DNA from: an uncultured delta proteobacterium
GTDB taxonomy: Bacteria; Desulfobacterota; Desulfobacteria; Desulfobacterales; B30-G6
DNA: 64,000 bases
Assembly (NCBI GenBank): GCA_963823335.1
Contig: CAWGLD010000007.1
Location: 32,001 to 96,000, forward strand
Direction of reading: 5' to 3'
Under the pieces are notes generated by a model. The model saw only the letters and a list, made by a program, of their open reading frames with translations. It did no database searches and was not told where the DNA came from. Position numbers and translations under genes: made by a program. Shown piece by piece: positions 13,238 to 49,038 of this stretch; the first letter of the stretch is position 1; the number at the start of each line of letters is the position of its first letter.

Positions 13238-13266
13238 AAAATAAATTGGCGACGCCAATTTATTTT
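13238..13266. promoter_or_regulatory. Perfect palindrome between the two permease genes
   Basis: AAAATAAATTGGCG-A-CGCCAATTTATTTT (14-bp arms), immediately upstream of the GGAGG RBS of the dppC-type gene. Confidence 0.5.
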
Positions 13267-13394
13267 CTCGTAATAGCCTTTTAGCGGTTTAGGCTAAGGA
13301 CTGTAGGCTGTTAGCCGCTTACAGCTTATTGCTTTCAGCTGTCAGCTACCCTCCAACCCTAGTATCACCCTTGTACCACCCTCGAACCCTTTGT

Positions 13395-14411
13395 CTAGTA
13401 CCTCACCCGCGGATCTATCAGGGCATACACGATGTCCACCACCAGAGAAACCAGGGCTACAATCACCGCAAAAACAACGATCACCCCTTGAATGGTGGGG
13501 TAGTCCCGGAGATATATGCGCTCCAGCAGCAATCGTCCCATTCCGGGCCAGGAAAATGTTGTTTCCGTTAACACGGCACCTGCCATGAGAAGGGCTACCT
13601 GGAGACCCATCATGGTCAATATGGGAACAAAGGCGTTCAGCATGGCATGCTTGTATACAACCCGGCGATGCCGGATGCCCCTGGCCTCGGCCGCCAGTAT
13701 GTAATCCGATTTCAGCACATCGAGCATGTTGGCCCTGGTGAGCCGGATAAATATGCCTGACAGGGTCAAGCCCAGGGTAAAAGACGGCAGTATCAGATGG
13801 ATGAGAACATCTTTCAACGCCTCGAAATCTCTCACCAGAATAGTGTCCAGTATGTAGAAACCGGTTTTTTCGAACATGGACACGAACACCCGTGCACCGG
13901 TTCGGCCGGCCACCGGAAGCACATCCATCCAGACGCCGAAAATCATCTGTAGCATCAACCCCAGCCAATATACCGGGATACAGTATATGACGATGCCATA
14001 AAGTCGAATCGCATAATCCTGGGGAGATCTGCGTTTGTCGGCGGCATAGGCACCCAGTGTCACGCCCACCAGAAGTGTGATGAGCATGCCAAAAAAGGTG
14101 AGCTCCATGGTGGCCGGGATTTTCATCTTGATGGCATCCACGACACGCTCATTGAAAATCATAGAGTTGCCGAGATCAAAACGACAAATTTGCAACAGGT
14201 AGTCACCATATTGCACGATCAGTGGCCGGTTGAGCCCCAGCTCCTCTTTTTTCTGTTCGATGACGCTTTCAGGCGCATGGCCACCGAGCATGGAAGAGAC
14301 CGGGTCGCCGGGCATCACGCGAATCACCACAAAAACAATGCTCAAGAGGATAAAAAGCATGGGCAATGTCAGGAATGTCCGTGTAATGATGTATCGAATG
14401 AGATTTTTCAT
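13395..14411 (-). CDS. Peptide ABC transporter permease (DppB type)
   Basis: VMPGDP, LGLNRPLIVQY, DYILAAEARGI, TETTFSWPGMG, RDYPTIQG. Confidence 0.93.
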   Translation of the reverse strand: MKNLIRYIITRTFLTLPMLFILLSIVFVVIRVMPGDPVSSMLGGHAPESVIEQKKEELGLNRPLIVQYGDYLLQICRFDLGNSMIFNERVVDAIKMKIPATMELTFFGMLITLLVGVTLGAYAADKRRSPQDYAIRLYGIVIYCIPVYWLGLMLQMIFGVWMDVLPVAGRTGARVFVSMFEKTGFYILDTILVRDFEALKDVLIHLILPSFTLGLTLSGIFIRLTRANMLDVLKSDYILAAEARGIRHRRVVYKHAMLNAFVPILTMMGLQVALLMAGAVLTETTFSWPGMGRLLLERIYLRDYPTIQGVIVVFAVIVALVSLVVDIVYALIDPRVRY

Positions 14412-14430
14412 CTATTGCGGGTCTGTGACG

Positions 14431-14471
14431 AAAAAAGCATGATATCCGCACACCTGGTACGGATATCATGC
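14431..14471 (-). terminator. Rho-independent terminator/attenuator after the binding-protein gene
   Basis: 12-bp stem GCATGATATCCG/CGGATATCATGC followed by T6 on the minus strand. Confidence 0.7.
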
Positions 14472-14481
14472 CTAAAGACAC

Positions 14482-16038
14482 TTATTTTGTGCGTTTGATG
14501 GGTGAATACATAAACTGCAATGTGGGAGAAATCATAATGCCTTCGATGTTTTTCTGGGAGAACAGATAAAGTGTTCCCTGAAAAATCGGGGCTGTGGGGA
14601 CTTCGTCGGTCCACATCTGCTGAACTGTCTTGTAGATGGCGGCTCTTTTGTTCTCATCCGCGTTTTTCTGTCCTTCCACAAACAAATTGTCCCAGACCTC
14701 GCTGGAAAAATAGATGCCGTTGCCTTTGGACCCGGCTGTTCCGGCAAAAGCGGCGGTGTAGTTGTCCGGGTCGATATAGTCCGGGTACCAGCCCAGAAGA
14801 TAAACCGGCATCAACTGCTCTCTCCAGTTATTTTTGTAGGTAGCCCACTCGGCGGATTTTACCGTTACATCGATTACACCGGTGGCCTCCAGTTGCGTCT
14901 TGATGACGGCTGCCATGTCCACTTCCGTATCACCATAATGGCTGGGTGTGTACCAGAATTCAAAGGTCAGCTTGTTGCTGCTGTTGAATCCTCTTGAACC
15001 CAGCAGCTCCTTGGCTTTGGCGATGTTGCCGTCGCCCCAGGTCGTTTTGAAATTATCCATGTGAGTCCACATGCCCATGGGGACCATGGAGTAGAGGGGT
15101 TCATTCTGTCCCAGAAAAACTTTTTTGATGATTTCAGGACGATTGAGTGCCGCGGCAACCCCCTGTCTTACGATTTTATCGTCAAACGGCGGGGTGTTGT
15201 TCTGAAAACAGAGATACCGGATATAGGGCCCCTGGCCTACGATGGTGTTAATTTTTGGTGATTTTTGCAGATCATTGATATCCGATGGATTGAAGGATTT
15301 GAATGCAAAATCAAGTTCACCCTTTTCCAGGGCAAGACGCATGGTGGTTGCATCCGCAAAATAACGTATGACCACCCGGTCATTCTTGGGTTTATCCCCC
15401 GAGAAATAGGGGTTGACATCCAGGATGATCTCTTCGTCCCGCTTGAAGGCAACCGCCTGATACTCTCCGAGGCCCACCAGTTTACCCCCTTTGAGATCGC
15501 TGGGGTTTTTCACAACCTTGTCGGCCGGGTAGACATTGGGATTGACCGGATAATAAGGTACCGTTGCCACGAGAGAAGGAAAATAGGCCACAGGGTTTTT
15601 CAGAATAAATTTCACGTTGTACTTATCGACAATGTCTACTCTCTCGACAAAATCCGTGACCAGCCAGGAAGGATCCCCGGCAATCCGGATAACCCTGTCG
15701 ATAGACCACTTGACCGCGTGAGAGTCGAAAGGTGTTCCATCCGAAAACTTGACACCCTCTTTCAACTTGAATGTATACTCTTTCCCGTCACTGCTGATGG
15801 TGTAGGATTCCGCCAGCCCGGGAACCAGATTGGTCTTCCCGGCAGGATAGCTCATCAGTCCCTGGTAGATATTGTAAAAAATTTCCCAGGTGTGAAAATC
15901 ATATGCATTACAAGGATCCATGTCCGTAACCTTTTCGGTGGTACCGTAAACCAGCGCCTGGCCCTTGGCAAAGCAATTACCGGACAGCAAAAAAACGGCC
16001 ATTACCAACACACTGAAAACAACTAACGTTTTTTTCAT
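14482..16038 (-). CDS. ABC transporter substrate-binding protein, family 5
   Basis: Signal peptide MKKTLVVFS, PGLAESYTISSDGKEYTFKL, GWYPDYIDPDNY. Confidence 0.92.
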   Translation of the reverse strand: MKKTLVVFSVLVMAVFLLSGNCFAKGQALVYGTTEKVTDMDPCNAYDFHTWEIFYNIYQGLMSYPAGKTNLVPGLAESYTISSDGKEYTFKLKEGVKFSDGTPFDSHAVKWSIDRVIRIAGDPSWLVTDFVERVDIVDKYNVKFILKNPVAYFPSLVATVPYYPVNPNVYPADKVVKNPSDLKGGKLVGLGEYQAVAFKRDEEIILDVNPYFSGDKPKNDRVVIRYFADATTMRLALEKGELDFAFKSFNPSDINDLQKSPKINTIVGQGPYIRYLCFQNNTPPFDDKIVRQGVAAALNRPEIIKKVFLGQNEPLYSMVPMGMWTHMDNFKTTWGDGNIAKAKELLGSRGFNSSNKLTFEFWYTPSHYGDTEVDMAAVIKTQLEATGVIDVTVKSAEWATYKNNWREQLMPVYLLGWYPDYIDPDNYTAAFAGTAGSKGNGIYFSSEVWDNLFVEGQKNADENKRAAIYKTVQQMWTDEVPTAPIFQGTLYLFSQKNIEGIMISPTLQFMYSPIKRTK

Positions 16039-16265
16039 CCCTACCCCCTTCACATTAATCTGTTATGATGAAATACCCCGGTGCAGAAATCTTGCAGCCG
16101 CACCAAAACATTATAGTTGTAAATATAGAGTAGAAACAGGACGGGGTCAACAAAGAAGGTGTTGATTCGCAAGTTGAACCCATTATAACAAAAGCCTTAC
16201 ACGATTTTATTATCGTGCTTGTTTGATCTTATTTGCCGAAACAGTTTTGGAATGCTATCTTGACG

Positions 16266-16326
16266 CTCTGAGCCGCTACCCACGGAGCGGTTGGACCTTT
16301 CCGGGTCCTCCACCAGAGGTGTGGGT
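16266..16326. other. Candidate structured RNA (three-way junction plus pseudoknot)
   Basis: CTCTG/CAGAG encloses the CCGCT/AGCGG and GGACC/GGTCC hairpins; loop ACCCAC is complementary to GTGGGT at 16321-16326. Confidence 0.45.
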
Positions 16327-16362
16327 TTTAGATCAGAACAATAAAAATATTAGGACCGTATC

Positions 16363-17952
16363 ATGCCAAATAAATTGCCCAGTATCTTTAACGATGTCAT
16401 CGGGCCGGTCATGCGGGGCCCCTCCAGCTCCCATTGCGCTGCAGCCACAAGGATCGGGCTTCTCGCACGCTCCCTGATGAACAATACCATCGGATCGGTC
16501 CTGGTAGAATTTGACAGGGCCGGTTCGTTAGCAACCACCCACGCATCCCAGGGATCTGACATGGGTCTGTGCGGCGGTCTTCTGGGCCTTGAGCCTTCTG
16601 ATGAGCGGCTTGTTCACTATCGGGAAGAGATCCGCAAGGCCGGTATTCAGGTTCGGTTCAAAACCGGTTCATACGGGGACGTACATCCAAATACGTACAG
16701 ATTGCGTCTGAAAAACGCGACGGAGACCCATGATCTGGTGGCCTTGTCCACCGGTGGCGGCATGATCGAGGTCGTTGAAGTCGATGGTCATGCCGTGTCC
16801 ATGCTGGGCGATCTTTATGAAACCTTGGTATATTTTGAGAAAAAAGAAAATGTCATCGCCCAGAATATCGAGAAAATCCTGCATGACAAAGGTAACATCC
16901 AGGTTCTGAAAGAAAAGAACAAACCACAAAACTTCATTCGCATAAAAACCAGAGTCCCCCTGGAGGATCGTCAATTAGACGCCATTTCAGCAGAACAAGG
17001 GGCCATCAGTGTTAAATGTCTGCCACCGGTCCTGCCCGTTTTGACACCCCGGGAAATAAATGTGCCCTTTGAATCCTGTGAACAGATGCTGGCCTTCAAC
17101 CGGAACCGGCACCTGAACCTTGCAGAACTGGCCATTCTGTATGAAAGCGCCCGGGGAGGGATCGGCCGGGAAGAGATCTTCCACAAAATGATCGAAATTG
17201 TCAGGACCATGAAATCTTCCCTGGAAGTGGGACTGGCAGGAACCCGCCATAAAGACAGAATCCTGGGGTGCCAATCGGCTTTTTATCGTGAAAAACAACG
17301 ATCCGGACAACTGCTGGATCTAGGTATCTTGAACCGTATTATTCTTTATGTCACGGCCCTGATGGAAACCAAGAGCGCCATGGGTGTGATTGTTGCCGCA
17401 CCGACAGCAGGGTCCTGCGGTGGGTTGCCGGGTACGGTTCTGGGAACTGTGGACGCCATGGGACGCTCTGAAAACGAAACGGCCGAGGCTATGCTGGCCG
17501 CCGGTATGATCGGCATATTTATTTCGACTTTATCGACCTTTGCTGCGGAAGTGGCGGGCTGTCAGGCGGAGTGTGGTGCCGGATCCGGCATGGCTGCGGC
17601 CGCTATCGTGACCCTCGTGGGCGGAACCACGGAAAATGCCGTGGCAGCGGCTTCCATGGCATTGCAGAACAGTCTGGGTATGATCTGTGATCCCGTGGCC
17701 AGCAGGGTCGAAGTGCCCTGCCTGGGGAAAAATGTATTGGCGGCAAGCAATGCCGTATCCTGTGCAAACATGGCCCTCGCAGGTTACGACCCGGTTATTC
17801 CCCTGGATGAGGTTATTCACACCATGGATGCCGTGGGAAAACGTATCCCCTGCGAATTCCGGTGTACCGCCCTGGGCGGTCTTTCAGTGACCGAGACATC
17901 CAAACAAATTGAAAAAAAGCTGCTTAGAAACGATAGACCAAAAGACCGCTGA
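16363..17952 (+). CDS. sdaA: Fe-S L-serine dehydratase with beta and alpha chains fused
   Basis: IGPVMRGPSSSH and STGGG (beta chain); IVAAPTAGSCG, GCQAECG, LGMICDPV, VEVPC (alpha chain). Confidence 0.88.
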   Translation: MPNKLPSIFNDVIGPVMRGPSSSHCAAATRIGLLARSLMNNTIGSVLVEFDRAGSLATTHASQGSDMGLCGGLLGLEPSDERLVHYREEIRKAGIQVRFKTGSYGDVHPNTYRLRLKNATETHDLVALSTGGGMIEVVEVDGHAVSMLGDLYETLVYFEKKENVIAQNIEKILHDKGNIQVLKEKNKPQNFIRIKTRVPLEDRQLDAISAEQGAISVKCLPPVLPVLTPREINVPFESCEQMLAFNRNRHLNLAELAILYESARGGIGREEIFHKMIEIVRTMKSSLEVGLAGTRHKDRILGCQSAFYREKQRSGQLLDLGILNRIILYVTALMETKSAMGVIVAAPTAGSCGGLPGTVLGTVDAMGRSENETAEAMLAAGMIGIFISTLSTFAAEVAGCQAECGAGSGMAAAAIVTLVGGTTENAVAAASMALQNSLGMICDPVASRVEVPCLGKNVLAASNAVSCANMALAGYDPVIPLDEVIHTMDAVGKRIPCEFRCTALGGLSVTETSKQIEKKLLRNDRPKDR

Positions 17953-20569: not shown

Positions 20570-21673
20570 TTATGTCATATAAACACCATATTTGTGAACA
20601 GCCTCAACGGCCGCTCGAACATTCTCCAAGGGGGTAGTTGGGCCGATGTTGCATAGATACAGGCAAAAGTGCCCGTTTTTCCCACCGATTTCGATGTACT
20701 GTTTCACCCGCTCGGCTACTTCCACGGGTTTACTCAAGGCCAGAAAACCGGCACCAATGCCAAGCACCAGAGCAACCCTGTTTTTTTCAGCATAGGCCTT
20801 GTAAACTGCAGGGCCGATTTTGGCCACATCTGGATCCTGACCTTCCACAAAATCCGGGCAAACCCGAAGCTTTAAATCGAGAAGTTCTTCAGGTCTTCGC
20901 AGATAACTTTCACCGACCCAGTTAGGCACATAAACCTGTGGACCGCAAATCTCCCGCAATCTGAGAATATAGGGGATAATCCAGTCCTGCAGAATAGAGG
21001 TGTTGACAATGGGCAACGAGGCCATTGCATCACTTCCGCATATACTCCGGGCTGTTGGAAACTTCTCTTTAAGGTAAAGGATCCAGGGGATGATCACATC
21101 TTCGGTAAACCGATCAAAAAGTTCCTTGGCAAAGGTGGGGTCCGTCATGATATCCATGATCAACCGTTCAACGCCTCGTGCATTCGCTGCCATGGTAAAG
21201 GGTGCACAAAAGTTCAGCGTCGGATCCTTATCGACCCACTCACGGTATAGGGTGTTCATTTCAACAACCATGGGGAAGCGCCCGTCTGTCGTGAAATCGG
21301 GCGTTTGGATCTTTTTCAGGTCATTCCAGTTTTTAATCAACGGGTCAGTGCGGTCAACATCAGGCGAATTATGCTTGCTGTAAATTATTTTCTGTCCAAT
21401 CGCCTCAACTTCAATATTGTAAATATCATAATCCAATAAAGGAACGTCCAGATCATATTTATGCGCCGTTGATAAAATTGCTGAAACCAGACATTGCGGA
21501 TCTGAAAAGAATTCCGGGGCATCGAGACCGGATTCTTTCATTGCCAGTTCATGAATTTGAGCAAAGACCGGAACCCGGTCCGGTATGCCTGTCAAGGCAT
21601 TTTCCAGACGGGTAATCCCTTCCTTAAAAAACGCATAATCGGGCGACCCGGCGCTGTTCAAGGAAGGTTTCAA
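20570..21673 (-). CDS. Uroporphyrinogen decarboxylase / MtaA-CmuA family (methylcobamide methyltransferase-like) protein
   Basis: PDRVPV, DIYNIEVEAIG, APFTMAANARG, TPLENVRAAVEAVHKYG; last gene of the mttB operon. Confidence 0.75.
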   Translation of the reverse strand: MKPSLNSAGSPDYAFFKEGITRLENALTGIPDRVPVFAQIHELAMKESGLDAPEFFSDPQCLVSAILSTAHKYDLDVPLLDYDIYNIEVEAIGQKIIYSKHNSPDVDRTDPLIKNWNDLKKIQTPDFTTDGRFPMVVEMNTLYREWVDKDPTLNFCAPFTMAANARGVERLIMDIMTDPTFAKELFDRFTEDVIIPWILYLKEKFPTARSICGSDAMASLPIVNTSILQDWIIPYILRLREICGPQVYVPNWVGESYLRRPEELLDLKLRVCPDFVEGQDPDVAKIGPAVYKAYAEKNRVALVLGIGAGFLALSKPVEVAERVKQYIEIGGKNGHFCLYLCNIGPTTPLENVRAAVEAVHKYGVYMT

Positions 21674-24136
21674 TTACATCCGTACCTTTTGACTCATGGG
21701 ATCATACATCGGTTCGAGGTGGATCTCGATGGGAAACAGCTTCCCGGCAACGTTGATTTCATAATCCCCCGCCATGATCCAGTCATCATCGATGCCATCG
21801 GAATGTTTCAGATAACACATTCCGATGGAGCACCCATACAGATGAGAATAGGCGCCATGGGTATTTTCACTCATCAGTTCCCCATTGCGATAGATGGGTT
21901 CATCATGGTAAACTAGCGGTTCGGGGTTTTTTAGTGAGAACATGACCAGCTTGCGTTTCAGACCGGTTTTCTTTTGCCGGGCCAGTGCCTCCTTACCCAG
22001 AAATGATGCTTTCTCCATTTTGACACAGAACCCCAACCCGGATTCGAAAGGTGTCTGATCCGGTGTAATGTCGGCCCCCCAGTGTTTGTAGCCCTTTTCC
22101 AATCGCAGGGAGTCCAGGGCATGCAGACCGACCAGCTGGAGGTTGTATTTTTCTCCTTCCGCCATCAGCGCATCAAAGACGTTATTTGAAAATTCTGTCG
22201 GTATGTACAGTTCCCACCCCAGTTCCCCGACAAACGACATGCGGATGGCCAGCGGTCTTGCATAGGCGACATTGATCTCTTGTGCGGTGGCAAACGGAAA
22301 CGCCGCGTTTGAAAGATCGGCATCGGTCAGATTTTGCAGAAATTCCCGTGCGTTCGGACCCATGACGGCGAGCATTGTGTAGCCGGAGGTCACCTCGGTC
22401 AGGGTCACGAAATCATTTTTCTTGATGTGACGATTTATGGTGTCGAAGTCCCGGACACCACAGGCACCCGGACTGACAATAAAGAATTTGTCTTCAGCCA
22501 GACGTGTAACCGTGATATCCGCTTCGATACCCCCCCGTTCGTTGAGCATCTGTGTGTAGACCACCTTACCAACCGGCACATCCACGTCATTGCAACAAGC
22601 ATATTGCAAGGTCTTCATGGCATCACGCCCCTGAACGAGAAATTTAGCCATGGAGGAGAGATCATAGACACCCAGATTTTCACGTACCGCCATATGCTCT
22701 GCAGCCGAGTATTCGAACCAGTTCTGGCGCCCCCAGCTGTATGCATATACCGGTGTTACACCCTCGGGAGCAAACCAGTTGGCACGCTCCCAGCCGGCCA
22801 CCACACCAAAGCAGGCACCGCGTTGTGCCAGTCTGTCGTGAAATGGCGTCTGACGGACATTTCTGGCGGTCTCCGGTTGTTTAAACGGCCAGTGATCCGC
22901 GTACAGATTGCCAACGGCTTCGATGACACGGTCGTGGACATAGCGCGTATTCTGCTGCCAACCGTAAAAACGCCGTACATCCACGGCCCACAGGTCTTCT
23001 TCGGGATAGCCCTGATCCATCCACTGGGCCAGTGCCCGGCCGGCGCCCCCCGCACTGGTGATGCCCACCGAATTCATACCGGTGGCTACAAAAAGGTTTT
23101 TGACACCGGGAACCTCACCCAGCATGTAAGCGGTATCGGGTGTAAAACTCTCCGGCACCGTTGTGAGGCTGTTAATTTCCGCTGTTTCAAAAGCCGGTAC
23201 TCTTTTTATCGCGTTTTTCATGAATATTTCGAATTGATCCCAGTCTTCCTGGAGCTGGGTATATTGAAAATTTTCCGGAATACCCTGCATACCCCAGGGC
23301 TTGGCCACCGGTTCAAAACCGCCCATAAGAAGACCGCCCATCTCCTCCTTGATATAGATATAGCCATCCATATCCCGCACATACGGCATCCCCTTGTAGG
23401 TTCCCTCCATGGGATTGGTGGTCATGTGCATGTGTTCGGCAGCATACAGCGGAAAGCTGGCACCCATCATCTTACCCAATTCACGCGACCACATACCAGT
23501 GCAATTGACCAGAAATTCACATGCAATGTCCCCCTGGTCGGTGGTAAGCCCGCTGACGGTGTCCAGCCCTGAGACGATGCCGGGTTTAAAATGGACGCCG
23601 GTTACCTTGACGTTCTCGATGAATCTGGCACCACCTTTTCTGGCGCCCTTGGCCAATGCCTGGGTTGTATCTTCGGGGTTGGTGTGTCCGTCGTTCGGCT
23701 GGAACCATGCTGCTTCAAGATCGTCGGTATGCAGCAGGGGAAACAATCTTCGGGCTTCTGTCAGGCTGATTTCTTCCATTTCAATGCCGAATGCACGCGC
23801 CATCTGCATGGATCGATCATATTCTTCTTTGCGTGCCTTGGTCTGTGCGACCCGGATGGAACCAGGACGCTGATAACCCGTAGGCTGCCCGGTCTCCTCT
23901 TCCAGACGGGAATAAAGATCCGCGCCGTAAACAGCGAGTTTGGTCAAGGCGGCATTCGACCAGAGCTGGCCCAGCAAGCCTGCTGCAGCCCAGGTCGTTC
24001 CGGATGCAATCGTTTTACGCTCCACAACCACGACATCCTTCCAGCCTAATTTACACAAGTGGTAAGCGACACTGCAACCGACAATACCACCCCCGACAAT
24101 GACAACCTGCGCGTGTGTGGGTAACTGTTCTGCCAT
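21674..24136 (-). CDS. Sarcosine/dimethylglycine dehydrogenase-like FAD oxidoreductase with GcvT THF-binding domain
   Basis: VIVGGGIVGCSVAYHL, ESFTPD, GWERANWF, SFVGELGWELY, SLRLEKGY. ATG 24136 follows AGGAGG. Confidence 0.88.
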   Translation of the reverse strand: MAEQLPTHAQVVIVGGGIVGCSVAYHLCKLGWKDVVVVERKTIASGTTWAAAGLLGQLWSNAALTKLAVYGADLYSRLEEETGQPTGYQRPGSIRVAQTKARKEEYDRSMQMARAFGIEMEEISLTEARRLFPLLHTDDLEAAWFQPNDGHTNPEDTTQALAKGARKGGARFIENVKVTGVHFKPGIVSGLDTVSGLTTDQGDIACEFLVNCTGMWSRELGKMMGASFPLYAAEHMHMTTNPMEGTYKGMPYVRDMDGYIYIKEEMGGLLMGGFEPVAKPWGMQGIPENFQYTQLQEDWDQFEIFMKNAIKRVPAFETAEINSLTTVPESFTPDTAYMLGEVPGVKNLFVATGMNSVGITSAGGAGRALAQWMDQGYPEEDLWAVDVRRFYGWQQNTRYVHDRVIEAVGNLYADHWPFKQPETARNVRQTPFHDRLAQRGACFGVVAGWERANWFAPEGVTPVYAYSWGRQNWFEYSAAEHMAVRENLGVYDLSSMAKFLVQGRDAMKTLQYACCNDVDVPVGKVVYTQMLNERGGIEADITVTRLAEDKFFIVSPGACGVRDFDTINRHIKKNDFVTLTEVTSGYTMLAVMGPNAREFLQNLTDADLSNAAFPFATAQEINVAYARPLAIRMSFVGELGWELYIPTEFSNNVFDALMAEGEKYNLQLVGLHALDSLRLEKGYKHWGADITPDQTPFESGLGFCVKMEKASFLGKEALARQKKTGLKRKLVMFSLKNPEPLVYHDEPIYRNGELMSENTHGAYSHLYGCSIGMCYLKHSDGIDDDWIMAGDYEINVAGKLFPIEIHLEPMYDPMSQKVRM

Positions 24137-24204
24137 GGGAACCTCCTGCATGGAATCTGAACGATTGGGTAACACTTTAAAAAGAATCATTACAATGGTT
24201 AATG

Positions 24205-24451
24205 CTTCAACTTTCGGTTTTCACCATCGATAGAGCGAAATGGGTGATCCAATGGCGATTTGCGCTGTTTGAGGCGCTTAGGGATTCTCACATCAGCGCA
24301 TGAAAATAAACATCCAACATGAAAACCTGTCCATTTGGAAACCATGCCTGTTTAACCATATGACCAGCGCTGATGTTAGAAGTCCTTTCGGCGAGTTCGC
24401 AAAGCGCCAGGGGATTATTCATTTCGTGTTCGCTGAACCCATGAAGTTGAG
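24205..24451. repeat. Long imperfect inverted repeat filling the intergenic region
   Basis: 24235-24299 is complementary to 24367-24427 (ACATCAGCGC/GCGCTGATGT; TGGCGATTTGCG/CGCAAAGCGCCA; CGAAATG/CATTTCG), with outer TCAACTT/AAGTTGA. Confidence 0.7.
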
Positions 24452-25921
24452 TTAACCCACGCCCTGCTCTTTCTCGGCTTCGTCAACGATCTCCCGAATG
24501 TCCTGGAGCACGCTGTCTGAGAGCTGCGGCGGTTCGTACGTCTCCAGGATATCGATCATCTTGTCGTGTGCACGCTGGTAGAGGTCTGTGCTGCCGTCCG
24601 CCTCCCAGTCTTCGCGCATGCGCCGGTCCATCAGTTCGGCTCGGGATTGCGATGCCCTATGTTGATACGTTGATTCATGGGCCAGGTAGTCTTTTCCGAT
24701 GCCCATCTCCCTGATAATGTCCACCGCCAAGGTCTCTTCGTTGACGGGTATACCTTTTACGGTATATTTAATCATTTCTGCAATTTCATTGTCGATGACC
24801 AGCTGTGCTAAATCAAAGGTGATTCCCATTTCGAGCATTCCCAGGCCGTATATGACGTTGGCTCCTGCCAGCGCCGGTAAAATGCCTGTAATGGTCTTTT
24901 CATGTCCCGACTGGGCATCGACCACCTTGCTGTCGCCCTAACCACCGGCGACGAAACACGGCAGACTGTAATAACGCGCCAGCCTTGCGACCGCGGCACT
25001 GATCATACCGGTTTCCGGCGATCCAACGGTTGCGGTAGCCCGGCGCAGGTCCAGCGGGCAGGTGGAGCTGCCATACATAAAGGGAGAGCCCTTGCGGCTC
25101 AGCTGGCTCAGCACCAGGCTGGAAAGCACTTCACAGTTCTGCACAACCAGGGTTCCCGCAAGGTGGATCGGAGCGGAACCCCCGGACATGGCCATGCCGA
25201 TAACGTTCACCCCCAGACCGTGCCTGGCCGCGCCCATGATGATCTCGCAATGGTGATCCGTAAGCTTCAACGGGCTGATGGGGCAGGTGGTAAACGAGAG
25301 CAGCGGCCGTTCTCTCAGCTTCTCCTTGCTTCCTGAAATGGCCACGCATATGTCTACAATTTTCTCCAACTGAAACCCGTTGACCGGGCCCAGCCAGTGA
25401 TGCTTGGTGGTGTTGGTCAGAGAAGCTTCCGCATTGTGGATCGCCTGGACCTCCGGCGGTTTGTCGTGCGAACACATAGCGCGCTCGTAAGTCTCCACGT
25501 TCTCCAGATAATCGATGAGGCGTGACGCTTTTTCGATGTCCGCCTTGGTGGTGTCGCGGTGTTCACCTGTATCGGGATCGACAAAGACAATCCCTTCACC
25601 AAAATTGGTAAACGTCACCCGGTTGTCCTCCAGCACCACGTCACTCTCAGGAATTCTTCCATAGGCAATAAACGTGGCCGGTGCGGTATGAATGGCATCC
25701 TCTACGACAAAATGGGGAATTTTTACGGTGCTACTTTTTGCATCAACCGTACAGCCCGCCCCGTGGTATATTTCAAGGGCTTTTTCATTTTCGACGAATA
25801 CACCGGTATTACTCAAAACTTCCAGTGTCGCCAGATGAATTTCATGAAGCTCGTCATCGGTCATGAGATTGAGACTGAATCCGCTGTTGCGTTTGATACC
25901 GGCTTTTGGTCTACGTTTCAT
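24452..25921 (-). CDS. mttB: Trimethylamine:corrinoid methyltransferase MttB, pyrrolysine-containing (489 aa, amber codon 328)
   Basis: ORFs 24938-25921 and 24452-24925 are in one frame, joined by TAG at 24940-24938: YSLPCFVAGG-[TAG]-GDSKVVDAQSGHEKT, matching the Pyl context of MttB. Confidence 0.93.
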
Positions 25922-25951
25922 AGTGCCTCCTTGCTCGCCCTATATTTGATT

Positions 25952-27433
25952 TTATTTCTTTTTTTTCACTTCCATCTCGTATGCGTCGACAATCTCTTTC
26001 ATGGCCTCGGAGACTTTGTCAGGCAGGGCATAGGGCTTATGATTTTCAAGGATGTCGATGGCTTTTGCATAAGCGCGATCCCTGATACTTTTGCCTTGCG
26101 TTACATCCATCCAGTCACCCCGCGAGCGTCTGTCGAACAGTTCGACCCGGGATTGGCTCCTCATGTAACGGAGATTCTGTTCGTGGGTGATGTAAGCGCC
26201 GCCGGGGCCGACCTCGTGTATGACATCCATGGCCAGGGTCTCGTCATTGACGACGACACCCCCGAGCGCGATTTGAATCATACGGATCATCTCCGCATCC
26301 ATGATCAGCTTGGCGTAGTCCATGGTGAGTCCCTGTTCCAGAACGCCGGAACCGAAGATGATGTTCCCGCCTGAAAGCGCACTCAGCGTAGCGCTCAGGG
26401 TAAATTCATAACCGGATTGGATATCCGGCTCTTTGCTGTCCGATGCACCGCCGCCCACCCAGCCGGGCAGTCGGTAGTACTGGGCCATTTTGGCAAGCGA
26501 TGCGTTGATCATACCATACTCGGGAGAACCGATGGCGGAGGTGCCGAATCTCAAATCCAGAATCGTGCTGGTGCTGCCATAGGTGCAGGGCAAACCTTTT
26601 TTCACCAACTGGGCCAGGGCGATGGTTGCCAGGACTTCGGCATTGTGGGTTACCAAGGTACCTGCCAGGGAAGCGCTGGCTGTTCCACCGGAGAGAGCCA
26701 TGGGTATGATGAGAATCCCCAATCCGAGCCGGGCGCTCTCTATGATGACGTCGCAGGTATTTTCTCCAAGGGTAAGCGGACTGATGGGGCAGACGTTGAC
26801 CGTAAAAATGGGTCGTTTCTGAAATATTTCCTTGCCACCCACGCACGCCGATGCGAGTTCGACCATTACCTGCAGGGACCTTGCCGAATCTGCACCGAGA
26901 AAGATATGCTTACCGGTGTTGGCCAACATGGCTTCGAGATTGTGCAGAGACTGTGTGCCATCCATGACATCTGTCGAGTTGACCATGCGCTCGGCTACAC
27001 TGATCTCGTCCAGATAGTCGCCTACCCGGACCAGTTCACCACAGTCCTTTTTGGTCGCCCGCCGAACTTTTTTGGTATAGGGATCGATAACGTTGATGCA
27101 GCCGCCGAATGTGGTAAATCCAACACGGTTGGGCTCCATAATAAAGTCGTCGGCTGGGTTCCTGGCATCGTACACAAATGTGTGCGGGGACCTGAAAGCG
27201 GACTCCTCCACCAGAAACGATGGAATTCTCACGATCCCGAAACCCTCATACCTCTCCACCATGGCACCGCCGCCGTGAAATATTTCGAGTGCCTCCTCGC
27301 TCATCACCTTTATCCCGGTGTCCTGGAGGATTTGCAGGGTTGCATAGTGGATCGAATCAAGCTCGTCCCGTGATAATGAGCTCAGCCCCAAGCCCGAAGA
27401 TGCACTGATTCCACTTCTGAAACGTCTTTTCAT
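25952..27433 (-). CDS. Non-pyrrolysine MttB-superfamily methyltransferase (Ala at the Pyl position)
   Basis: Collinear with the adjacent mttB; LPGWVGGG-A-SDSKEPDIQSGYEFT. Start trimmed to MKRRFRSG (ATG 27433). Confidence 0.9.
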   Translation of the reverse strand: MKRRFRSGISASSGLGLSSLSRDELDSIHYATLQILQDTGIKVMSEEALEIFHGGGAMVERYEGFGIVRIPSFLVEESAFRSPHTFVYDARNPADDFIMEPNRVGFTTFGGCINVIDPYTKKVRRATKKDCGELVRVGDYLDEISVAERMVNSTDVMDGTQSLHNLEAMLANTGKHIFLGADSARSLQVMVELASACVGGKEIFQKRPIFTVNVCPISPLTLGENTCDVIIESARLGLGILIIPMALSGGTASASLAGTLVTHNAEVLATIALAQLVKKGLPCTYGSTSTILDLRFGTSAIGSPEYGMINASLAKMAQYYRLPGWVGGGASDSKEPDIQSGYEFTLSATLSALSGGNIIFGSGVLEQGLTMDYAKLIMDAEMIRMIQIALGGVVVNDETLAMDVIHEVGPGGAYITHEQNLRYMRSQSRVELFDRRSRGDWMDVTQGKSIRDRAYAKAIDILENHKPYALPDKVSEAMKEIVDAYEMEVKKKK

Positions 27434-27730
27434 GACACCCCCTGTCACCAAATATGGTGCTTTGTAGCCGTGTCTGATCTGCTGTATGTCTTCAAAAGTC
27501 TTTGGTAAAATCAGGAATTGAGATAGCAAGAAAGATTTTCAGGATCCAATACCTTTTATTGGTTTTTTAAGCAACTATTTATGATAAAAAAATTCTTGAT
27601 TCCACTTTTTTTTGGTTCAATTAATTTAGTTCAATTAAAAGGTGAATTTCTCAGATCTCTTGACTTTGGTCGCGATACAAATTAGAGTCATTTTTAACTG
27701 CGGCAAGACAATGTGCTATTTATCGTGCAT

Positions 27731-27897
27731 CGAAGAACCTCACAGCATGCGAAGCACTGCCGAACGGCAGAACCTACGAAAAATGTTGTGATGTGCGGCA
27801 GTGCTTTGCAGCGACCATAAGAGATTCTGCCTAATTTAGATTCGCTCGCTAACCCCGCAGTAAGCTGCGGGGTTAGCGCAGGCTATTGCGGTTCAAA
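27731..27897. repeat. Dispersed repeat family B, longest copy
   Basis: Contains the CTGCCGAACGGCAG hairpin and the perfect 14-bp hairpin CGCTAACCCCGCAG-TAAG-CTGCGGGGTTAGCG, ending GCGGTTCAA. Confidence 0.75.
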
Positions 27898-27924
27898 TTT
27901 CAACTTACATAACGTGGTAGAAAA

Positions 27925-28881
27925 ATGAATACAATTCTCAGTTTGGTACTCAAACGACTGGCATTTGGTCTGGTGACCATTATCGTTATCTCAGTTTTAA
28001 TTTTTATCGGGGTGGAGGCGTTGCCCGGAGATCTGACCGAGGCAATTTTGGGACAAAGCGCTTTGCCTGAGACAATAGCGGCCTTTCGCAGGGAACTGAA
28101 ACTGGATCTTCCCCCGCATATCCGCTATTTCGCCTGGCTGGGTGATATAATGCACGGAAACCTCGGCAATTCCCTGGCGAACGGGAGGCCCATTGCTGAT
28201 CTGGTTGGCTGGCGATTTGCCAATACGCTCTTTCTGGCGTCCTCAGCAGCCGTGGTTGCCGTGCCCTTCGCTATTATGCTGGGTATCCTCGCTGCGCTAT
28301 ATCGCAACAGCTTGTTTGACCGGGCCATTTCCATCGCTACACTCAGTACTATTTCCTTTCCCGAGTTCTTTGTGGCCTATATTTTGGTGGCGTTGCTCTC
28401 GGTCAAATTGGTTGTGTTTCCCAGTATTTCAAATATCAACGACGGTATGGCATTTTGGGAAAAGATTCGAGCAATTGTCCTGCCCTGTTTGACCCTGACA
28501 CTGGTGGTTGTCGCTCACATGATGAGACAGACACGTGCGGCCATCATCAACATCCTGGCCAGTCCCTTCATTGAAATGGCTCATCTGAAAGGCATAAAAC
28601 GGTTACGGGTTATCGTGGTGCACGCTTTTCCGAACGCTCTCTCGCCCGTGATCAATGTGGTTGCGTTGAATCTGGCCTATCTGGTTGTGGGTGTGGTGAT
28701 TGTGGAGGTCGTTTTTGTCTATCCGGGTCTGGGGCAGTTGCTGGTGGATTCAGTCTCCAAACGAGATCTTCCGGTCGTACAGGCAAGTTGTCTCATTTTT
28801 GCCGTGATCTACATTAGTCTAAACTTGCTCGCTGACGTACTGTCTATTATCAGTAATCCTCGCATGCGAAATCCTCGATAA
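27925..28881 (+). CDS. Peptide-type ABC transporter permease (DppB type)
   Basis: EALPGD, FIEMAHLKG, VEVVFVYPGLG, RDLPVVQA. Confidence 0.92.
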   Translation: MNTILSLVLKRLAFGLVTIIVISVLIFIGVEALPGDLTEAILGQSALPETIAAFRRELKLDLPPHIRYFAWLGDIMHGNLGNSLANGRPIADLVGWRFANTLFLASSAAVVAVPFAIMLGILAALYRNSLFDRAISIATLSTISFPEFFVAYILVALLSVKLVVFPSISNINDGMAFWEKIRAIVLPCLTLTLVVVAHMMRQTRAAIINILASPFIEMAHLKGIKRLRVIVVHAFPNALSPVINVVALNLAYLVVGVVIVEVVFVYPGLGQLLVDSVSKRDLPVVQASCLIFAVIYISLNLLADVLSIISNPRMRNPR

Positions 28882-28893
28882 GGAGAGCATTCA

Positions 28894-29718
28894 ATGGCGG
28901 TTTTCAAATTATTGAGACAATCACCCTGGAGCGCACGATGCGGCATAGCTATCGTGCTGCTCAATATTGGCGCCGCAATACTCGCACCGGTGGTGGCACC
29001 TTATGGTGAGACTGAAATAACAGGCGATGTCTGGATGTCCATGAGCGGCGACCATCTACTGGGTACCGATCACCTGGGGAGAGACCTGTTCACACGCCTG
29101 CTTTATGGCGCCCGCAACACCATTGCAATCGCTTTTATTACCACCATGCTTTCGTTTGTGGTCGGAACTGTGTGCGGTTTTTTTGCAGCGACGCTGAAAG
29201 GATGGGTCGATCAACTTCTCAGTCGCCTGGTTGACATTCTCATGGCGTTTCCGACCCTCATTTTTGCTTTAATGGCCTTGTCCGTGGTCGGGACATCCAT
29301 TGGTGCCTTGATCCTGGTGATCGCACTGTTGGACTCGACCCGGGTTTACCGCTTGTCACGCGCTGTGGCAATGGACATCGCCGTCATGGAATATGTTGAG
29401 GCTGCACGGCTGCGTGGTGAAAAAACCTGGTGGCTCATGCGCCAAGAAATCCTGCCCAACGCCATGCCGCCACTCGTGGCCGAATTTGGCCTGCGGTTCT
29501 GTTTCGTATTTTTGTTCATCGCCGCATTGTCCTTTCTGGGTCTTGGCATCCAACCGCCTATGGCGGACTGGGGCGGCATGGTCCGGGAAAATTCCGGTGC
29601 GATCACGTTTGGCATTTTCATTCCCTTGTGGCCGGCCGGGGCAATCGCTTTTCTGACAGTGGGTGTCAATTTAATCGTCGACTGGTTTCTACATGTCGCC
29701 AGCGGTTTGAAAGATTAG
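28894..29718 (+). CDS. Peptide-type ABC transporter permease (DppC type)
   Basis: HLLGTDHLGRDLFTR, EYVEAARLRGE, LSFLGLGIQPP. Confidence 0.92.
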   Translation: MAVFKLLRQSPWSARCGIAIVLLNIGAAILAPVVAPYGETEITGDVWMSMSGDHLLGTDHLGRDLFTRLLYGARNTIAIAFITTMLSFVVGTVCGFFAATLKGWVDQLLSRLVDILMAFPTLIFALMALSVVGTSIGALILVIALLDSTRVYRLSRAVAMDIAVMEYVEAARLRGEKTWWLMRQEILPNAMPPLVAEFGLRFCFVFLFIAALSFLGLGIQPPMADWGGMVRENSGAITFGIFIPLWPAGAIAFLTVGVNLIVDWFLHVASGLKD

Positions 29719-29745
29719 CCATCAAGCTTATGATACGGTGAATAG

Positions 29746-31401
29746 ATGACGCAATTATTAGAGATGAAAGATATCTGGATTGAGGGATTCAGCGACGAAA
29801 AATGGCGGCCCATCATCAACGGCCTGAACCTTACCTTGGACAAAGGGGAAGTGCTGGGTTTAATCGGGGAATCCGGGGCCGGAAAATCAACCTTCGGCCT
29901 GGCTTCCATGGCTTATACCCGTCAGGGCTGCCGTATATCTTCCGGGTCCATCCTGTTCGATGGCATCGAACTGTTTGGAGCGTCGGAGAAGACCTTGAGA
30001 AAAATCAAAGGTGTTCGGATCGCCTATGTAGCCCAAAGTGCCGCGGCCTCTTTTAACCCGGCGCACCGGCTCATTAAGCAGTATGCAGAGGCTCCCGTTC
30101 AGCACCATATCATGTCCTTTGCAGAGGCTGAAAAGGAGGCCTTCGATATTTATAAACGGCTGCTGCTGCCGGATCCGGAACGCATCGGATACCGGTATCC
30201 GCACCAGGTGTCCGGTGGACAACTGCAACGTGCCATGGTTGCCATGGCAATGGCGTGCAAGCCGGACCTTATCATTTTTGACGAACCGACCACCGCACTG
30301 GATGTGACAACCCAGATTGAAGTTTTGGCCGCAATAAAACGCATCACCCGGCAATTCAATACAGCGGCCATTTACATCACCCATGACCTGGCTGTGGTGG
30401 CCCAGTTGGCAGACCGGATCATGGTGTTGCGCTATGGCAATTTGGTGGAAGAAAACAATGCCCGCCAATTGATTGCCCATCCGAAAGAGGAATACACCCG
30501 TGCCCTTCTTTCCGTCCGAACACTTCGAGAAGACAAGGACCTTTCAAAGACAGAACATGATACCATTCTGGAGGTCGAAAACGTCTCTGCAAGTTACACG
30601 GGCAAGGAGCTGGTCTTACAGGACATAGACCTGATAATCCGGCGTGGCCGGACCGTGGCGCTGGTGGGAGAATCGGGCAGCGGGAAAAGCACCCTGGCCC
30701 GGGTGATCACCGGGTTGCTTCCACCCCTCAAAGGTCGTGTCATTTATGACGGCCAGGATCTGCCACCGGCTTTAAGAAAGCGCAAAAAGGAAAGTCTCAG
30801 GGTGATGCAGATGATTTACCAGATGCCGGACACGGCCCTGAATCCCAGGCAACGGGTCAGCAGGATCATTGGACGCCCCCTTCAGTTTTACTATGGCATT
30901 CATGGCAAGGAGGCCGAGAAACGCGTTCTTGAGTTATTGGATAAGATCGAATTGACGCCAAAATACAAAGATCGATTTCCAGGAGAGCTCTCTGGTGGAG
31001 AAAAGCAACGGATTTGCATTGCGCGTGCTCTGGCAGCCGAACCCGATCTTATTATTTGTGATGAGGTCACCTCCGCCTTAGATCAGCTTGTGGCTGAAGA
31101 TATTTTGAAGCTGCTGCGCAAGCTCCAAAATGACCTGCAGGTGTCATATCTTTTTATTACCCATGATCTGGCCACAGTTAAAGCCATAGCGGATGAAATT
31201 GTGGTCATGCTGCAGGGCAAGATCGTGGAACAGGGCCGTAAAACGGATATTCTGACACCACCTCACCATGAATATACCGACCTGCTGCTGGAATCGGTCC
31301 CGGAGATGGACCCGGATTGGCTCGACGGCGTGCTGGCCGAAAGGGAACGCAAATCCGCCATGGGCATTGCCGTGAAGACAACCTTTATCGAAGAATCTTG
31401 A
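29746..31401 (+). CDS. ABC transporter ATP-binding protein with two fused ATPase domains
   Basis: Two Walker A motifs (GESGAGKS, GESGSGKS) and two signatures (SGGQLQR, SGGEKQR). Confidence 0.93.
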   Translation: MTQLLEMKDIWIEGFSDEKWRPIINGLNLTLDKGEVLGLIGESGAGKSTFGLASMAYTRQGCRISSGSILFDGIELFGASEKTLRKIKGVRIAYVAQSAAASFNPAHRLIKQYAEAPVQHHIMSFAEAEKEAFDIYKRLLLPDPERIGYRYPHQVSGGQLQRAMVAMAMACKPDLIIFDEPTTALDVTTQIEVLAAIKRITRQFNTAAIYITHDLAVVAQLADRIMVLRYGNLVEENNARQLIAHPKEEYTRALLSVRTLREDKDLSKTEHDTILEVENVSASYTGKELVLQDIDLIIRRGRTVALVGESGSGKSTLARVITGLLPPLKGRVIYDGQDLPPALRKRKKESLRVMQMIYQMPDTALNPRQRVSRIIGRPLQFYYGIHGKEAEKRVLELLDKIELTPKYKDRFPGELSGGEKQRICIARALAAEPDLIICDEVTSALDQLVAEDILKLLRKLQNDLQVSYLFITHDLATVKAIADEIVVMLQGKIVEQGRKTDILTPPHHEYTDLLLESVPEMDPDWLDGVLAERERKSAMGIAVKTTFIEES

Positions 31402-33470: not shown

Positions 33471-34880
33471 ATGGAAAACGTAATGACCCGAATGGGGGAT
33501 GGAAGCCGGATTGAAATGACTGCGGATGACGTCCGGAGGGATTTGGAAGCCGGTAGCCAGGAAGCTGCCGGACGCGCAAACGTACCTGCCCTGATCGATG
33601 ACGAGATAAATTACCTGATGGATCTCTTTCAATCCAAAGATCGTGTGGTGGGAGTTGAAATGGGCAAGGAAGTCTGTTTGAGCTATGACAACATGACGTC
33701 TAAAATCAAACGGGCTCACATCCCCATCAGTAAGATACAACAACTGCTGTTGTTCGAAAGAGGGCTGGGTGCCGACACGCTGGAACTGACCCATATTGAC
33801 TACAGTTTCAAGCAGTGTAAACACGTGGTGCAGTATGAAAAACCGAACATGGAACAGGCGGTACTGCAGACCATTGCCCCGATTTTCTATGGCGCCATGC
33901 CGAACCTCGGTCTGTACAGCGTACCCGACGGACCGGTGGTCAACCCTGGCGACCTGCTACCCGAAGGAAAGATTACCGAGGCCCAGCAAGCCTATGAAGA
34001 AATGGCGGAATACGCCATCAAAGACATGGTCTACGTGGGTAGTGAACTTTACGAGAAAGCCGGTGCGGACGGTATAAATTTCGACACTACCGCAGCTTCC
34101 GGAGATGCCGAATTTTATGCGACCTTGAAGGCTGTTGAAATCCTTCACAAAAAATATCCCGACATGGGTATAGAAATGGGAATGTCCGGTGAGTTTATAT
34201 TGGGCATGCACGGAGATATAGAATATAACGGTGTACGCTTGGCCGGGCTTTTCCCCCAGGATCAGGTTAAACTGGCCCAAAAAGCAGGGGTAACGATTTT
34301 CGGCCCGGCCATCAATATTCTCACCAATGACTCACTTCCGTATAACCTGGCTCGTTCACTGGTTTTTACCAAAGCCTGCTCTGAGGCCTCGGATATTCCG
34401 ATCCATGCCAACCTGGGCATGGGTGTCGGCGGTGTCCCCCTGACCCTCACGCCCCCTCTGGATGCCCTGTCGCGGGCATCCAAAGCACATGTCGAAATTT
34501 GCCGTTTGGACGGGTTGTAGGTGGGGGTCGGCGACCCGCTGGGAATGCATGCTGCACATGCAGTTGTCTCGGGAATGGGCGGATTACGAACTGCCGGAGA
34601 TCTGGTAGCGCGTATGCAACTGAACCGGGGTATGCGAATCGATGCAGCCAAAGCGTATGTGGCGGGAAAACTGGGTGTCACGGTCGCCGATCTGGCGGAC
34701 ACGGTTGTCATGAACGAGGTCCGGGAAGATCTGGATATCGGACGTGTCAACGAAACACCCGCTGTCGCCAAGGGGATCGATGCCAAATTCAGAATAGCGG
34801 AACGCCTTGACTTGGAAATCAACTGCGTCAATATGTTTATGAAAAGAGTGGGCATTGATTCTTACCACGCATTTAAGTAG
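33471..34880 (+). CDS. mtbB: Dimethylamine:corrinoid methyltransferase MtbB, pyrrolysine-containing (469 aa, amber codon 350)
   Basis: TRMGDG start, YGAMPNLGLY, GMGVGGVP; TAG at 34518-34520 in CRLDGL-[TAG]-VGVGDPLGM...RTAGDLVARMQ, the MtbB Pyl context. Confidence 0.93.
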
Positions 34881-47649: not shown

Positions 47650-49038
47650 TTATCTGATCATGGTACGCCCTTCAAACCTGTTGACGCAATTAATTTTAAT
47701 ATCCAGGGCGCTGGCAATGTTGAATTTCGCTTCAATGCCTTTGGCGCATCCAGGCAGCGGTGTCATGATGCCCAGGTTCAAATCCTGCCGAACCTCACCC
47801 ATGATCACAGGATCGGTCAAATCGGAAATTGCCACCTTCAGTTTCTCCGCCACATAAGCCTTGGCCTGTTCAATTCGCATTCCCCGGGCCATTTGCACAC
47901 GAGCAACCAGATCTCCGGCTCCTCGCATTCCGCCCATTCCCGAGGCATGCGCGTGGGTGATCGCCATGGCAAAGGGATCACCCACGCCAACCTACAAACC
48001 GTCCAGGCGGCATATTTCTACAATTGCCTTGGATGAACGCGAAACAATATCCATGGGCGGGTGATCGTTTACCGTCACCCCTCCGACCCCCATGCCCATA
48101 TTGGGGTGAATGGGAATCTGTGCCACTTCGCCACATGCCTTGGTATAGGTAACCGTGCGGGCCAGGTTCCAGGGTGCCGATTCGTTGGTGTTTGTGTTGA
48201 TCACCGGCCCGAAAATGGTAGCCCCGGCGGCCTCGGCCATCTTTACCTGGCGATGGGGATACATCCCTGCCAGGCGTTCTCCCTTGTAGGTCAATTCGCT
48301 GTGCATCCCCAGAACGAACTCCCCGGCCATGCCTATTTGAATGCACATATCCGGATATTTGGCCCTGAGCTTCTCCGTGGCCAGTAAAGCCGCGAGAAAG
48401 TCGGCATCCCCGGCAGCCCCGGTGGTATCCAGGTTGATCCCGTCAGCACCCGATTCATACATGGCGCTTGCAGCTGAAACGATATCCGCCACCAGGTATT
48501 CCACCGAGGCTTCATAAGATTGTTGTGCCTCTTCGATCTTGCCCATAGGCATCAATTCGCCCGGGTTGGGGAAAGGTCCGTCAGGCTGGCTGTATAGCCC
48601 CAGGTTGGGCTGAGCACCGTAAAACAGCGGGATATGCGTGACAAGCAAGGCTTGTTCCAAGATGGGTTGTTCCATGGTGATGATGGGTTTGACGGGCTTA
48701 TAGGAATAATCCACATGGTTCAACTCCATGGTATCAGCCCCCATGATCTTCTCATAAATCTGCAAGGCCTGGATGCGGTCCACGTTGACGCCTACTCTGC
48801 GGATTTTCAACGTTCCGGCATCGTATGTGAGAATCACTTCATGGCCCGGTTCGACGCTCAAAAACCGAAATGGGCATTTAAATATATCCCGCAGGTGTTC
48901 GAGCTCCGACTGGGTCAGGGGATCTATTTGACCTCGTTGAGCAGCATCCTGGCTGCCACGCTGCAGGTCCTCCATTAATTCTTCTTCACTCAACGCAAGG
49001 ACGGTTCCGTCCCCGTAGCGGGTTATAATGTTACGCAT
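47650..49038 (-). CDS. mtbB: Second dimethylamine:corrinoid methyltransferase MtbB, pyrrolysine-containing (462 aa, amber codon 349)
   Basis: ORFs 47992-49038 and 47650-47985 are in frame, joined by TAG at 47994-47992: CRLDGL-[TAG]-VGVGDPFAM...RGAGDLVARVQ. AGGAGG RBS; ends TAA. Confidence 0.93.

Follow-up and report, generated by a model that had tools for sequence, protein, structure and literature searches.

A covarying hairpin downstream of the in-frame amber codon of mttB in an uncultured Desulfobacterales bacterium

A short hairpin that follows the in-frame amber codon of an mttB-family methyltransferase gene is conserved and covaries among the amber-containing homologues of that gene, and it is very likely an RNA structure under selection. 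The gene lies in what we call the window, i.e., the whole stretch of 64,000 nucleotides analyzed here (Table 1), and we are highly confident that it is a working pyrrolysine (Pyl) enzyme gene of an uncultured Desulfobacterales sulfate reducer, the in-frame TAG of which almost certainly encodes Pyl. Because Pyl-MttB has already been published for Desulfobacterales (PMC8318568, PMC1976440), the gene itself is ordinary; it is one more member of a published trait, as amber mttB and mtbB genes accompanied by a pyl set are known in Deltaproteobacteria, and the covarying, amber-linked hairpin outweighs it in importance. The mechanism of targeted Pyl insertion and UAG discrimination has been called unknown (PMC12626013), and the hairpin makes the question of how one UAG comes to mean Pyl and another stop testable by a few synonymous changes, since the element is just 16 nt long, contains a covarying pair, has been lost naturally from Pyl-less paralogues and can be compared with the stop codon of dsrA as a control. 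Amber-suppression work, too, could profit from an element that raises read-through at a UAG of choice.

Table 1. Positions of the features discussed in the text, numbered from the first nucleotide of the window.
Feature	Position	Strand	Basis
mttB-family methyltransferase gene, 489 codons with the amber codon read through	24452..25921	(-)	profile score, alignment, fold
In-frame TAG, codon 328, equivalent to Pyl334 of M. barkeri MttB	24938..24940	(-)	sequence, alignment, homologues
Shine-Dalgarno-like GGAGG, 4 nt 5' of the ATG	25926..25930	(-)	sequence
Tyr358 codon (catalytic Tyr364 of M. barkeri MttB), 3' of the amber codon	24848..24850	(-)	alignment
Candidate cis element, 6-bp stem and AGGN loop, +66 to +81 after the UAG	24857..24872	(-)	conservation, covariation
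25 codons 3' of the amber codon, synonymous substitution halved	24863..24937	(-)	tree-based counts
Pyl-less MttB-family paralogue, likely ATG at 27433, ORF open from 27529	25952..27433	(-)	profile, alignment
Dimethylglycine-dehydrogenase-like flavoprotein (DAO and GcvT domains), next gene downstream	21674..24190	(-)	domains
URO-D/MtaA-CmuA-like protein, below NCBIfam cut-offs	20570..21673	(-)	profile
mtbB, in-frame TAG 34518-34520, CCGG-AGAU-CUGG hairpin 34594-34605	33471..34880	(+)	profile, Rfam, motif
Second mtbB, in-frame TAG 47992-47994, CCGG-AGAU-CUGG hairpin 47907-47918	47650..49038	(-)	profile, Rfam, motif

The mttB frame opens with ATG, closes with TAA and holds a single internal stop, the TAG, which stands in the context VAGG-[TAG]-GDSKVVDAQSGHEKT; the sequence thus agrees with the initial annotation, which had described a 489-residue read-through product with the amber codon at the pyrrolysine site of MttB. 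That product scored 717.6 bits on TIGR02369 (cut-off 525), a weak test of Pyl dependence given that the Pyl-less neighbor also exceeds the cut-off (591.8 bits). The alignment to Methanosarcina barkeri MttB covers residues 4-485 and places the TAG opposite the X of PDB 7XCL, and Gly110, Met249, Tyr364, and Gly372 of that enzyme are all retained, the first and third as Gly108 and Tyr358; Gly110 and Tyr364 are reported to be fully conserved in Pyl enzymes (PMC9842639). The AlphaFold model (mean pLDDT 72) shares the fold of the M. barkeri structures (7XCL/7XCM/7XCN; Li et al. 2023, PMC9842639) with a TM score of 0.84 to 7XCL at 44% identity, although Thr111 is replaced by Glu and several strand-end motifs are also unlike those of M. 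barkeri. The last barrel strand and Tyr358 are encoded 3' of the TAG, and the Tyr364 equivalent is found in 83 of 83 amber homologues but in only 1 of 47 others. The genome contains 21 MttB-family matches, 7 of which carry TAG in the Pyl column (six full-length copies, 37-75% identical to the window copy, and one piece of 60 codons) and none of which has a stop elsewhere. Since the TAG is also kept in 10 of 10 orthologues and exactly once in all 34 of the closest homologues among 301 genomes of the order, the amber codon is not due to chance. The stop in the homologues is always TAG, never TAA or TGA. A contig of DNA run X2, which may be the source sample, spans 24411-25166 with zero mismatches, and the nearest named records (87-98% identity) are from uncultured delta proteobacteria and Desulfobacterales.

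The hairpin has the core R-YUGGC-AGGN-GCCAA-Y and lies inside the codons for LAGAN. Counted over 206 homologues (265 before near-copies were removed), its six pairs are complete in 88 of 108 LAGAN-coding amber genes and in none of 13 Pyl-less paralogues, and the underlying codons differ accordingly, with TTG used in 91/108 and GCA in 100/108 amber genes versus 0/13 and 1/13 Pyl-less genes. The loop opens with an A at a synonymous site, which is kept in 100 of the 108 genes against a background of 21%. Of 4950 pairs, the outer one, whose two sites are both synonymous, shows the strongest covariation, being G-C in 59 and A-U in 55 of 135 genes. On the tree, its two sides underwent 13 and 16 changes with 16 joint changes, giving a ratio of 0.55, whereas the 171 comparable pairs averaged 0.89 and the next-lowest value was 0.78. 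In a subset of 66 genes (the window and alternate loci), pairing is seen in 91% of cells in the proper register and in 26-52% in slid registers, and the covariation score was reached by 0 of 500 shuffles. A strict version of the motif occurs five times in the 4.37-Mb genome, each time 66 nt after the TAG of an amber mttB, and a looser rule picks out 9 of 11 Pyl TAGs versus 4 of 727 terminal TAGs; both rules were drawn after the fact from these genes. The hairpin motif had no match in viral contigs. A comparable hairpin, CCGG-AGAU-CUGG, with its loop at +78, is found in mtbB, where the codons GGA, GAT, and CTG are kept in 50, 49, and 49 of 53 genes, respectively. The Leu codon directly 5' of the mtbB TAG is TTG in 49 of 53 genes, although CTG is the commonest Leu codon.

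The hairpin persists across homologues of 37% to 100% protein identity, including records from Bacillota and Actinomycetota. Eight bacterial genes of the PMC3639795 supplement, compared by eye, show six pairs in two, one of them Thermincola with a compensatory A-U, and five pairs in one, while mttB of Acetohalobium and Desulfitobacterium forms a partial stem with four of six pairs. The window copy itself has one C.A mismatch, as do 16 CTG genes, and fewer than five pairs are formed in 23 of 135 amber mttB genes. Six pairs were seen in none of 29 Methanosarcina-type amber mttB genes and five in one; these are the distinct sequences among 37 loci fetched by a Methanosarcina-type motif, 18 of them coding for LAGAN, and are archaeal in type by likeness only (one was checked, with 738 bits to 7XCM). 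The 10 archaeal genes of the PMC3639795 supplement, by eye, likewise include none with six pairs. RNAalifold kept three stem pairs, with a weak consensus energy of -1.14 kcal/mol. Like an element of the insertion-sequence type, the hairpin is a conserved structure that follows the recoded codon and is absent behind ordinary stops (apart from the few terminal TAGs picked out by the looser rule), but unlike such an element it does not occur in all recoded genes. Because pairs are partial or missing in some amber genes, the hairpin should be regarded as common rather than obligatory or universal.

Existing models and literature touch on the same region. Rfam PYLIS_3 (RF02510) scores 75.6 bits on the window mttB (threshold 38) and covers the 100-nt region in which the hairpin lies, but it draws scattered pairs, not the stem described here. 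Two amber-free paralogues, at 26347-26446 (-) and 36164-36261 (+), are also above its threshold (45.3 and 42.2 bits), so the model mostly reads coding sequence and a match is no sign of recoding. PYLIS_2 (RF02509) already draws a stem around the AGAY loop of mtbB. An element in bacteria or in mttB has been sought twice before without success, as far as the available portions of the papers go: Theil Have et al. (2013; PMC3639795), using 10 archaeal and 8 bacterial genes, describe mttB as lacking a common structure, and PMC1976440 argues that a cis element should be needed in bacteria but reports no common structure, whereas the structure presented here is backed by covariation over 135 genes. 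Archaeal PYLIS was reported to be nonessential and of limited covariance (PMC2933860), Pyl suppression was stated to require no insertion element (PMC13663744), and PYLIS is not mentioned in PMC11363022. The hairpin was not found in our literature search, which covered mainly the main text of openly available articles.

Whether the hairpin acts on UAG decoding, helping the cell to tell Pyl codons from stops, seems to us evenly balanced. We entertain, tentatively, the broader idea that bacteria in which UAG frequently serves as a stop mark a good many Pyl codons by a short AG-loop stem placed about 70-80 nt downstream, which is read by a factor. If so, the stem would have arisen in both mttB and the unrelated mtbB, PylSn would be a candidate reader, marked UAGs would be biased to Pyl while dsrA-type UAGs terminate, and Methanosarcina-type mttB would do without the mark. 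It is also conceivable, though we would not favor it, that the hairpin is a real RNA structure and not a codon mark, shielding the ribosome-poor mRNA that follows a leaky stop from Rho or nucleases and thereby keeping the downstream genes expressed. Its distance of at least 66 nt from the UAG would suit such a role: given the size of the ribosome footprint, the hairpin stands well outside the ribosome during UAG decoding, and it is farther from its codon than a SECIS-type signal. Loss of the hairpin where the amber codon is lost is equally predicted by mRNA protection, and its absence from Methanosarcina-type genes might reflect a Rho-related need. A stem of 6 bp is, however, a small barrier, and the retention of the synonymous A at the head of the loop, together with an mtbB loop that also starts with AG, suggests recognition of the loop. 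In the reading we prefer, UAG is still an ordinary stop in most genes, and a higher yield of full-length protein is the most likely effect of the hairpin.

Pyl synthesis and tRNA charging are established pathway steps, and the genes for them are intact in this genome: PylB (contig C1), PylC, and PylD would make Pyl from lysine, and PylSc and PylSn would charge tRNA-Pyl(CUA) (contig C2). At UAG 328, tRNA-Pyl would compete with the release factor, and part of the ribosomes would complete the 489-residue enzyme, a read-through that the position, invariance and selection of the codon argue for. By analogy with M. barkeri MttB, the Vmax of which falls from 48 to 1.7 per minute when Tyr364 is lost (PMC9842639), Tyr358 and water would activate the Pyl imine, and the methylated amine would then add to it. 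The methyl group would be passed to a corrinoid protein encoded elsewhere and on to tetrahydrofolate, and its oxidation would be coupled to sulfate reduction; this sink seems likely by analogy with the methyl-tetrahydrofolate and sulfate-coupled oxidation proposed in PMC8318568, and dsrA and pterin-binding methyltransferase candidates are present in the genome. Of its four corrinoid protein genes two exceed the cut-off and none is in the window, so the corrinoid partner must act in trans. RamA-like matches fell below their cut-off.

Trimethylamine is probably the substrate, the doubt arising from the presence of six amber copies that have diverged, from a pocket signature peculiar to the clade and from the dimethylglycine-dehydrogenase-like neighbor. 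In the alternative, which we consider somewhat unlikely, Pyl is inserted but the paralogue demethylates another tertiary amine, e.g., dimethylglycine. The coexistence of six full-length amber copies with as little as 37% identity would accord with divided substrates, as would the strand-end signature FTNFGEG in 44 of 44 members of the clade (with TYER-MC and HHWL-P throughout), the occurrence of a dimethylglycine-dehydrogenase-like gene in 16 of 45 clade loci, and the fact that the window copy is not the one beside pylT and a corrinoid gene. Against this alternative, the residues that bind the carboxylate in the glycine betaine methyltransferase MtgB are replaced, the equivalog cut-off of TIGR02369 is passed, and the literature on Pyl enzymes, in the parts available, names methylamines only as substrates. 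MtgB (2QNE/9YCE; PMC13080624) belongs to the same superfamily and has the same fold (TM 0.81) at 29-30% identity, but it lacks Pyl and uses Arg312 and His348, whereas the window gene has the TAG, Phe323, and Tyr358. Another amber mttB of this genome (G000:C1:1189225-1190709, 37% identical to the window copy) has Arg at the MtgB Arg312 site and might encode a Pyl enzyme for a carboxylated tertiary amine. The 60-codon amber piece (G000:C5:313324-313503) retains the hairpin motif and adjoins a dimethylglycine-dehydrogenase-like gene.

By counts of third-position changes made on the tree and confined to codon boxes, the 25 codons that follow the TAG changed at 0.50 of the gene average in the window mttB clade (38 genes, near-copies removed), compared with 1.06 (s.d. 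0.11, minimum 0.80) in distant windows; the value was 0.71 in 29 other amber mttB genes and 0.76 in 53 mtbB genes, whereas the matching codons of 26 Pyl-less paralogues gave 1.05. With a cruder first measure the control, too, had been mildly elevated (rank 20 of 458), an effect that disappeared when Ser and Leu codons were split into their separate boxes. Folded as a whole, the 102 nt that start at the UAG were weakly more stable than synonymous recodings (mean z -0.87; 9 of 41 below -1.64). A possible stem enclosing the UAG was proposed in clade A only. That the conserved stretch is not RNA at all but results from gene conversion, codon preference or a palindromic DNA site is improbable: there are many paralogues per genome, a DNA palindrome would covary too, and the sequences are related and supplied the hairpin rule themselves, but no slowing is seen in the 25 codons that precede the TAG (1.06), the retained Leu codon TTG is not the preferred one, the paired sites co-change on the tree, which conversion would not select, and the element spans the full range of identities and phyla given above.

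It is very improbable that the gene is a pseudogene, a sequencing error or two genes with assembling products, even though translation table 11 lists ORFs of 327 and 157 residues, the second with a GTG start at 24925, because every homologue has the TAG, the stop precedes the codons for the last barrel strand and Tyr358, the pyl genes show no disruption, and selection is as strong after the TAG as before it, with dN/dS in 10 orthologue pairs (Nei-Gojobori, pairwise, the larger dS values near saturation) of 0.024-0.078 upstream and 0.040-0.096 downstream, i.e., below 0.1 throughout.

The complete bacterial Pyl system is present in the genome, comprising pylT with a CUA anticodon, pylSc, pylSn, pylC, pylD, and a separate pylB. 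Contig C2 carries a row of a corrinoid protein gene, tRNA-Pyl(CTA), pylSc, pylC, pylD, and pylSn, with another amber mttB and an mtbB divergent from it, and all profile scores exceed their cut-offs (PylSc 326.5 bits, PylC 389.6, PylD 251.3, and PylSn 132.2). The single-copy pylB (PylB profile score 455.1) is on contig C1 (G000:C1:1461420-1462460), apart from the other pyl genes; it follows a gene for an aldehyde:ferredoxin oxidoreductase, has a gene for a pterin-binding methyltransferase ~3 kb away and ends in TAG with a 4-codon tail. Feedback control through that TAG, which is found in 18 of 31 loci, was rejected, as the TAG overlaps the pylC start in 15 of 17 relatives. PylSc occurs in 22 of 27 genomes with a close mttB homologue versus 21 of 274 other genomes, a count in which kin are not independent and the five PylSc-less genomes are 61-95% complete. 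All five mtbB genes of the genome, two of them within the window, hold one TAG, and standard annotation, whose truncation of amber genes has been noted before (PMC7593587), cuts short at least 11 methyltransferases here.

The expanded genetic code proposed in the initial annotation therefore stands as far as the Pyl decoding machinery is concerned, and two of the checks suggested there, a search for pyl genes and a comparison of dN/dS across the TAG, came out in favor of Pyl, but TAG is not reassigned, as it ends 738 of 3426 called genes (21.5%; purpose-written gene caller). The in-frame tails after TAG have a median of 16 codons, similar to those after TAA and TGA (14), and with a length-only caller TAG ends 480 of 2237 genes here versus 22 of 134 (16.4%) in PylSc-negative relatives, the latter amounting to about 296 kb from five relatives of higher GC. 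The stop codon of dsrA is TAG in 13 of 15 Pyl-positive genomes and in 9 of 15 that are Pyl-negative. Because TAG ends many ordinary genes including dsrA, UAG decoding must be ambiguous or conditional in a cell that handles both meanings, and a genome-wide reassignment of TAG to Pyl, for which the at least 11 full-length amber methyltransferase genes might be cited, is hardly credible in view of the terminal TAGs, their ordinary tails and the dsrA counts. In this genome dsrA (G000:C1:1015316-1016569) is in frame with dsrB, 12 nt apart, such that an amber leak would yield a DsrA-DsrB fusion. The two genes are in frame in 9 of the 13 Pyl-positive genomes with a dsrA TAG; the arrangement was ruled out as a Pyl feature since it is also found in Pyl-negative genomes, and it serves as a control. 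When 261 TAG-ending genes with tails of at least 25 codons were compared with within-genome paralogues, only mttB and mtbB stood out as Pyl proteins, the top-scoring other candidates in this crude comparison resembling in-frame neighbors; a CutC match was below cut-off.

Similar systems have been described. The marine Deltaproteobacteria of Kivenson et al. (2021; PMC8318568) are likewise Desulfobacterales that possess pyl genes, an amber mttB whose Pyl is residue 327 of 485, as many as five mttB copies, amber mtbB, Pyl-less homologues and tRNA-Sec, while the present genome has six full-length amber mttB and five mtbB genes with pylB on another contig; an RNA element is not mentioned in the portion of that paper covered. 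The Olavius algarvensis delta-1 symbiont has six MtbB and two MttB amber genes with a full pyl set (Zhang and Gladyshev 2007, PMC1976440). M. barkeri, which shares the Pyl position and the four conserved residues, differs in that here no corrinoid gene is adjacent, PylSn and PylSc are split, TAG is not depleted, and the hairpin is present that Methanosarcina-type genes lack in its full form. As to other genes of the genome, a tRNA-Sec (G000:C6:16589-16686) and a glycine/betaine-reductase-type selenoprotein B match with one TGA (L221) make for a dual code expansion, and an MtmB homologue (G000:C7:374563-375909) has no internal stop and adjoins a corrinoid protein gene; a non-Pyl MtmB homologue is the subject of a 2026 paper (PMC13044021).

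The uninterrupted paralogue directly upstream of mttB is collinear with it, as initially noted, though merely 45% identical, and has Ala at the Pyl site and Phe at the Tyr364 site. Its clade, which carries Ala or Thr at the former, Phe at the latter and no MtgB Arg312, nests among Pyl enzymes (FastTree; 114 of 130 rows, near-copies dropped), which suggests a joint loss of Pyl and Tyr. The clade occurs in 19 of 301 genomes, 16 of them with PylSc. The paralogue immediately precedes the amber gene in 18 of the 45 mttB-clade loci, but an obligate partnership was rejected, as amber mttB directly follows in just 8 of 19 partner-side loci; in others a corrinoid gene is next, or mtbB precedes. Further Pyl-less MttB-family genes lie at 35178-36650 (+) and 51491-52936 (+), the first with Arg at the MtgB Arg312 site, which suggests an acidic quaternary amine as its substrate. 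Promoter and terminator scans gave 11 and 8 sites versus 7.8 and 9.0 by chance, and expression from RNA runs X9, X17, and X19, whose contigs overlie parts of the gene, was set aside, the depth (one figure per contig) being low and intergenic DNA being covered too. Intergenic repeats are present at 27720-27900 (palindromic, REP-like) and 24191-24451, the two gaps together having 204 blastn matches in the genome, mostly to 27720-27900, and a REP-associated transposase match was found in L004. Two peptide/nickel-type ABC transporter sets, a fused L-serine ammonia-lyase and a homocysteine S-methyltransferase-like gene (10116-17952, 27925-31401, and 59036-59989) surround the methyltransferases of the window.
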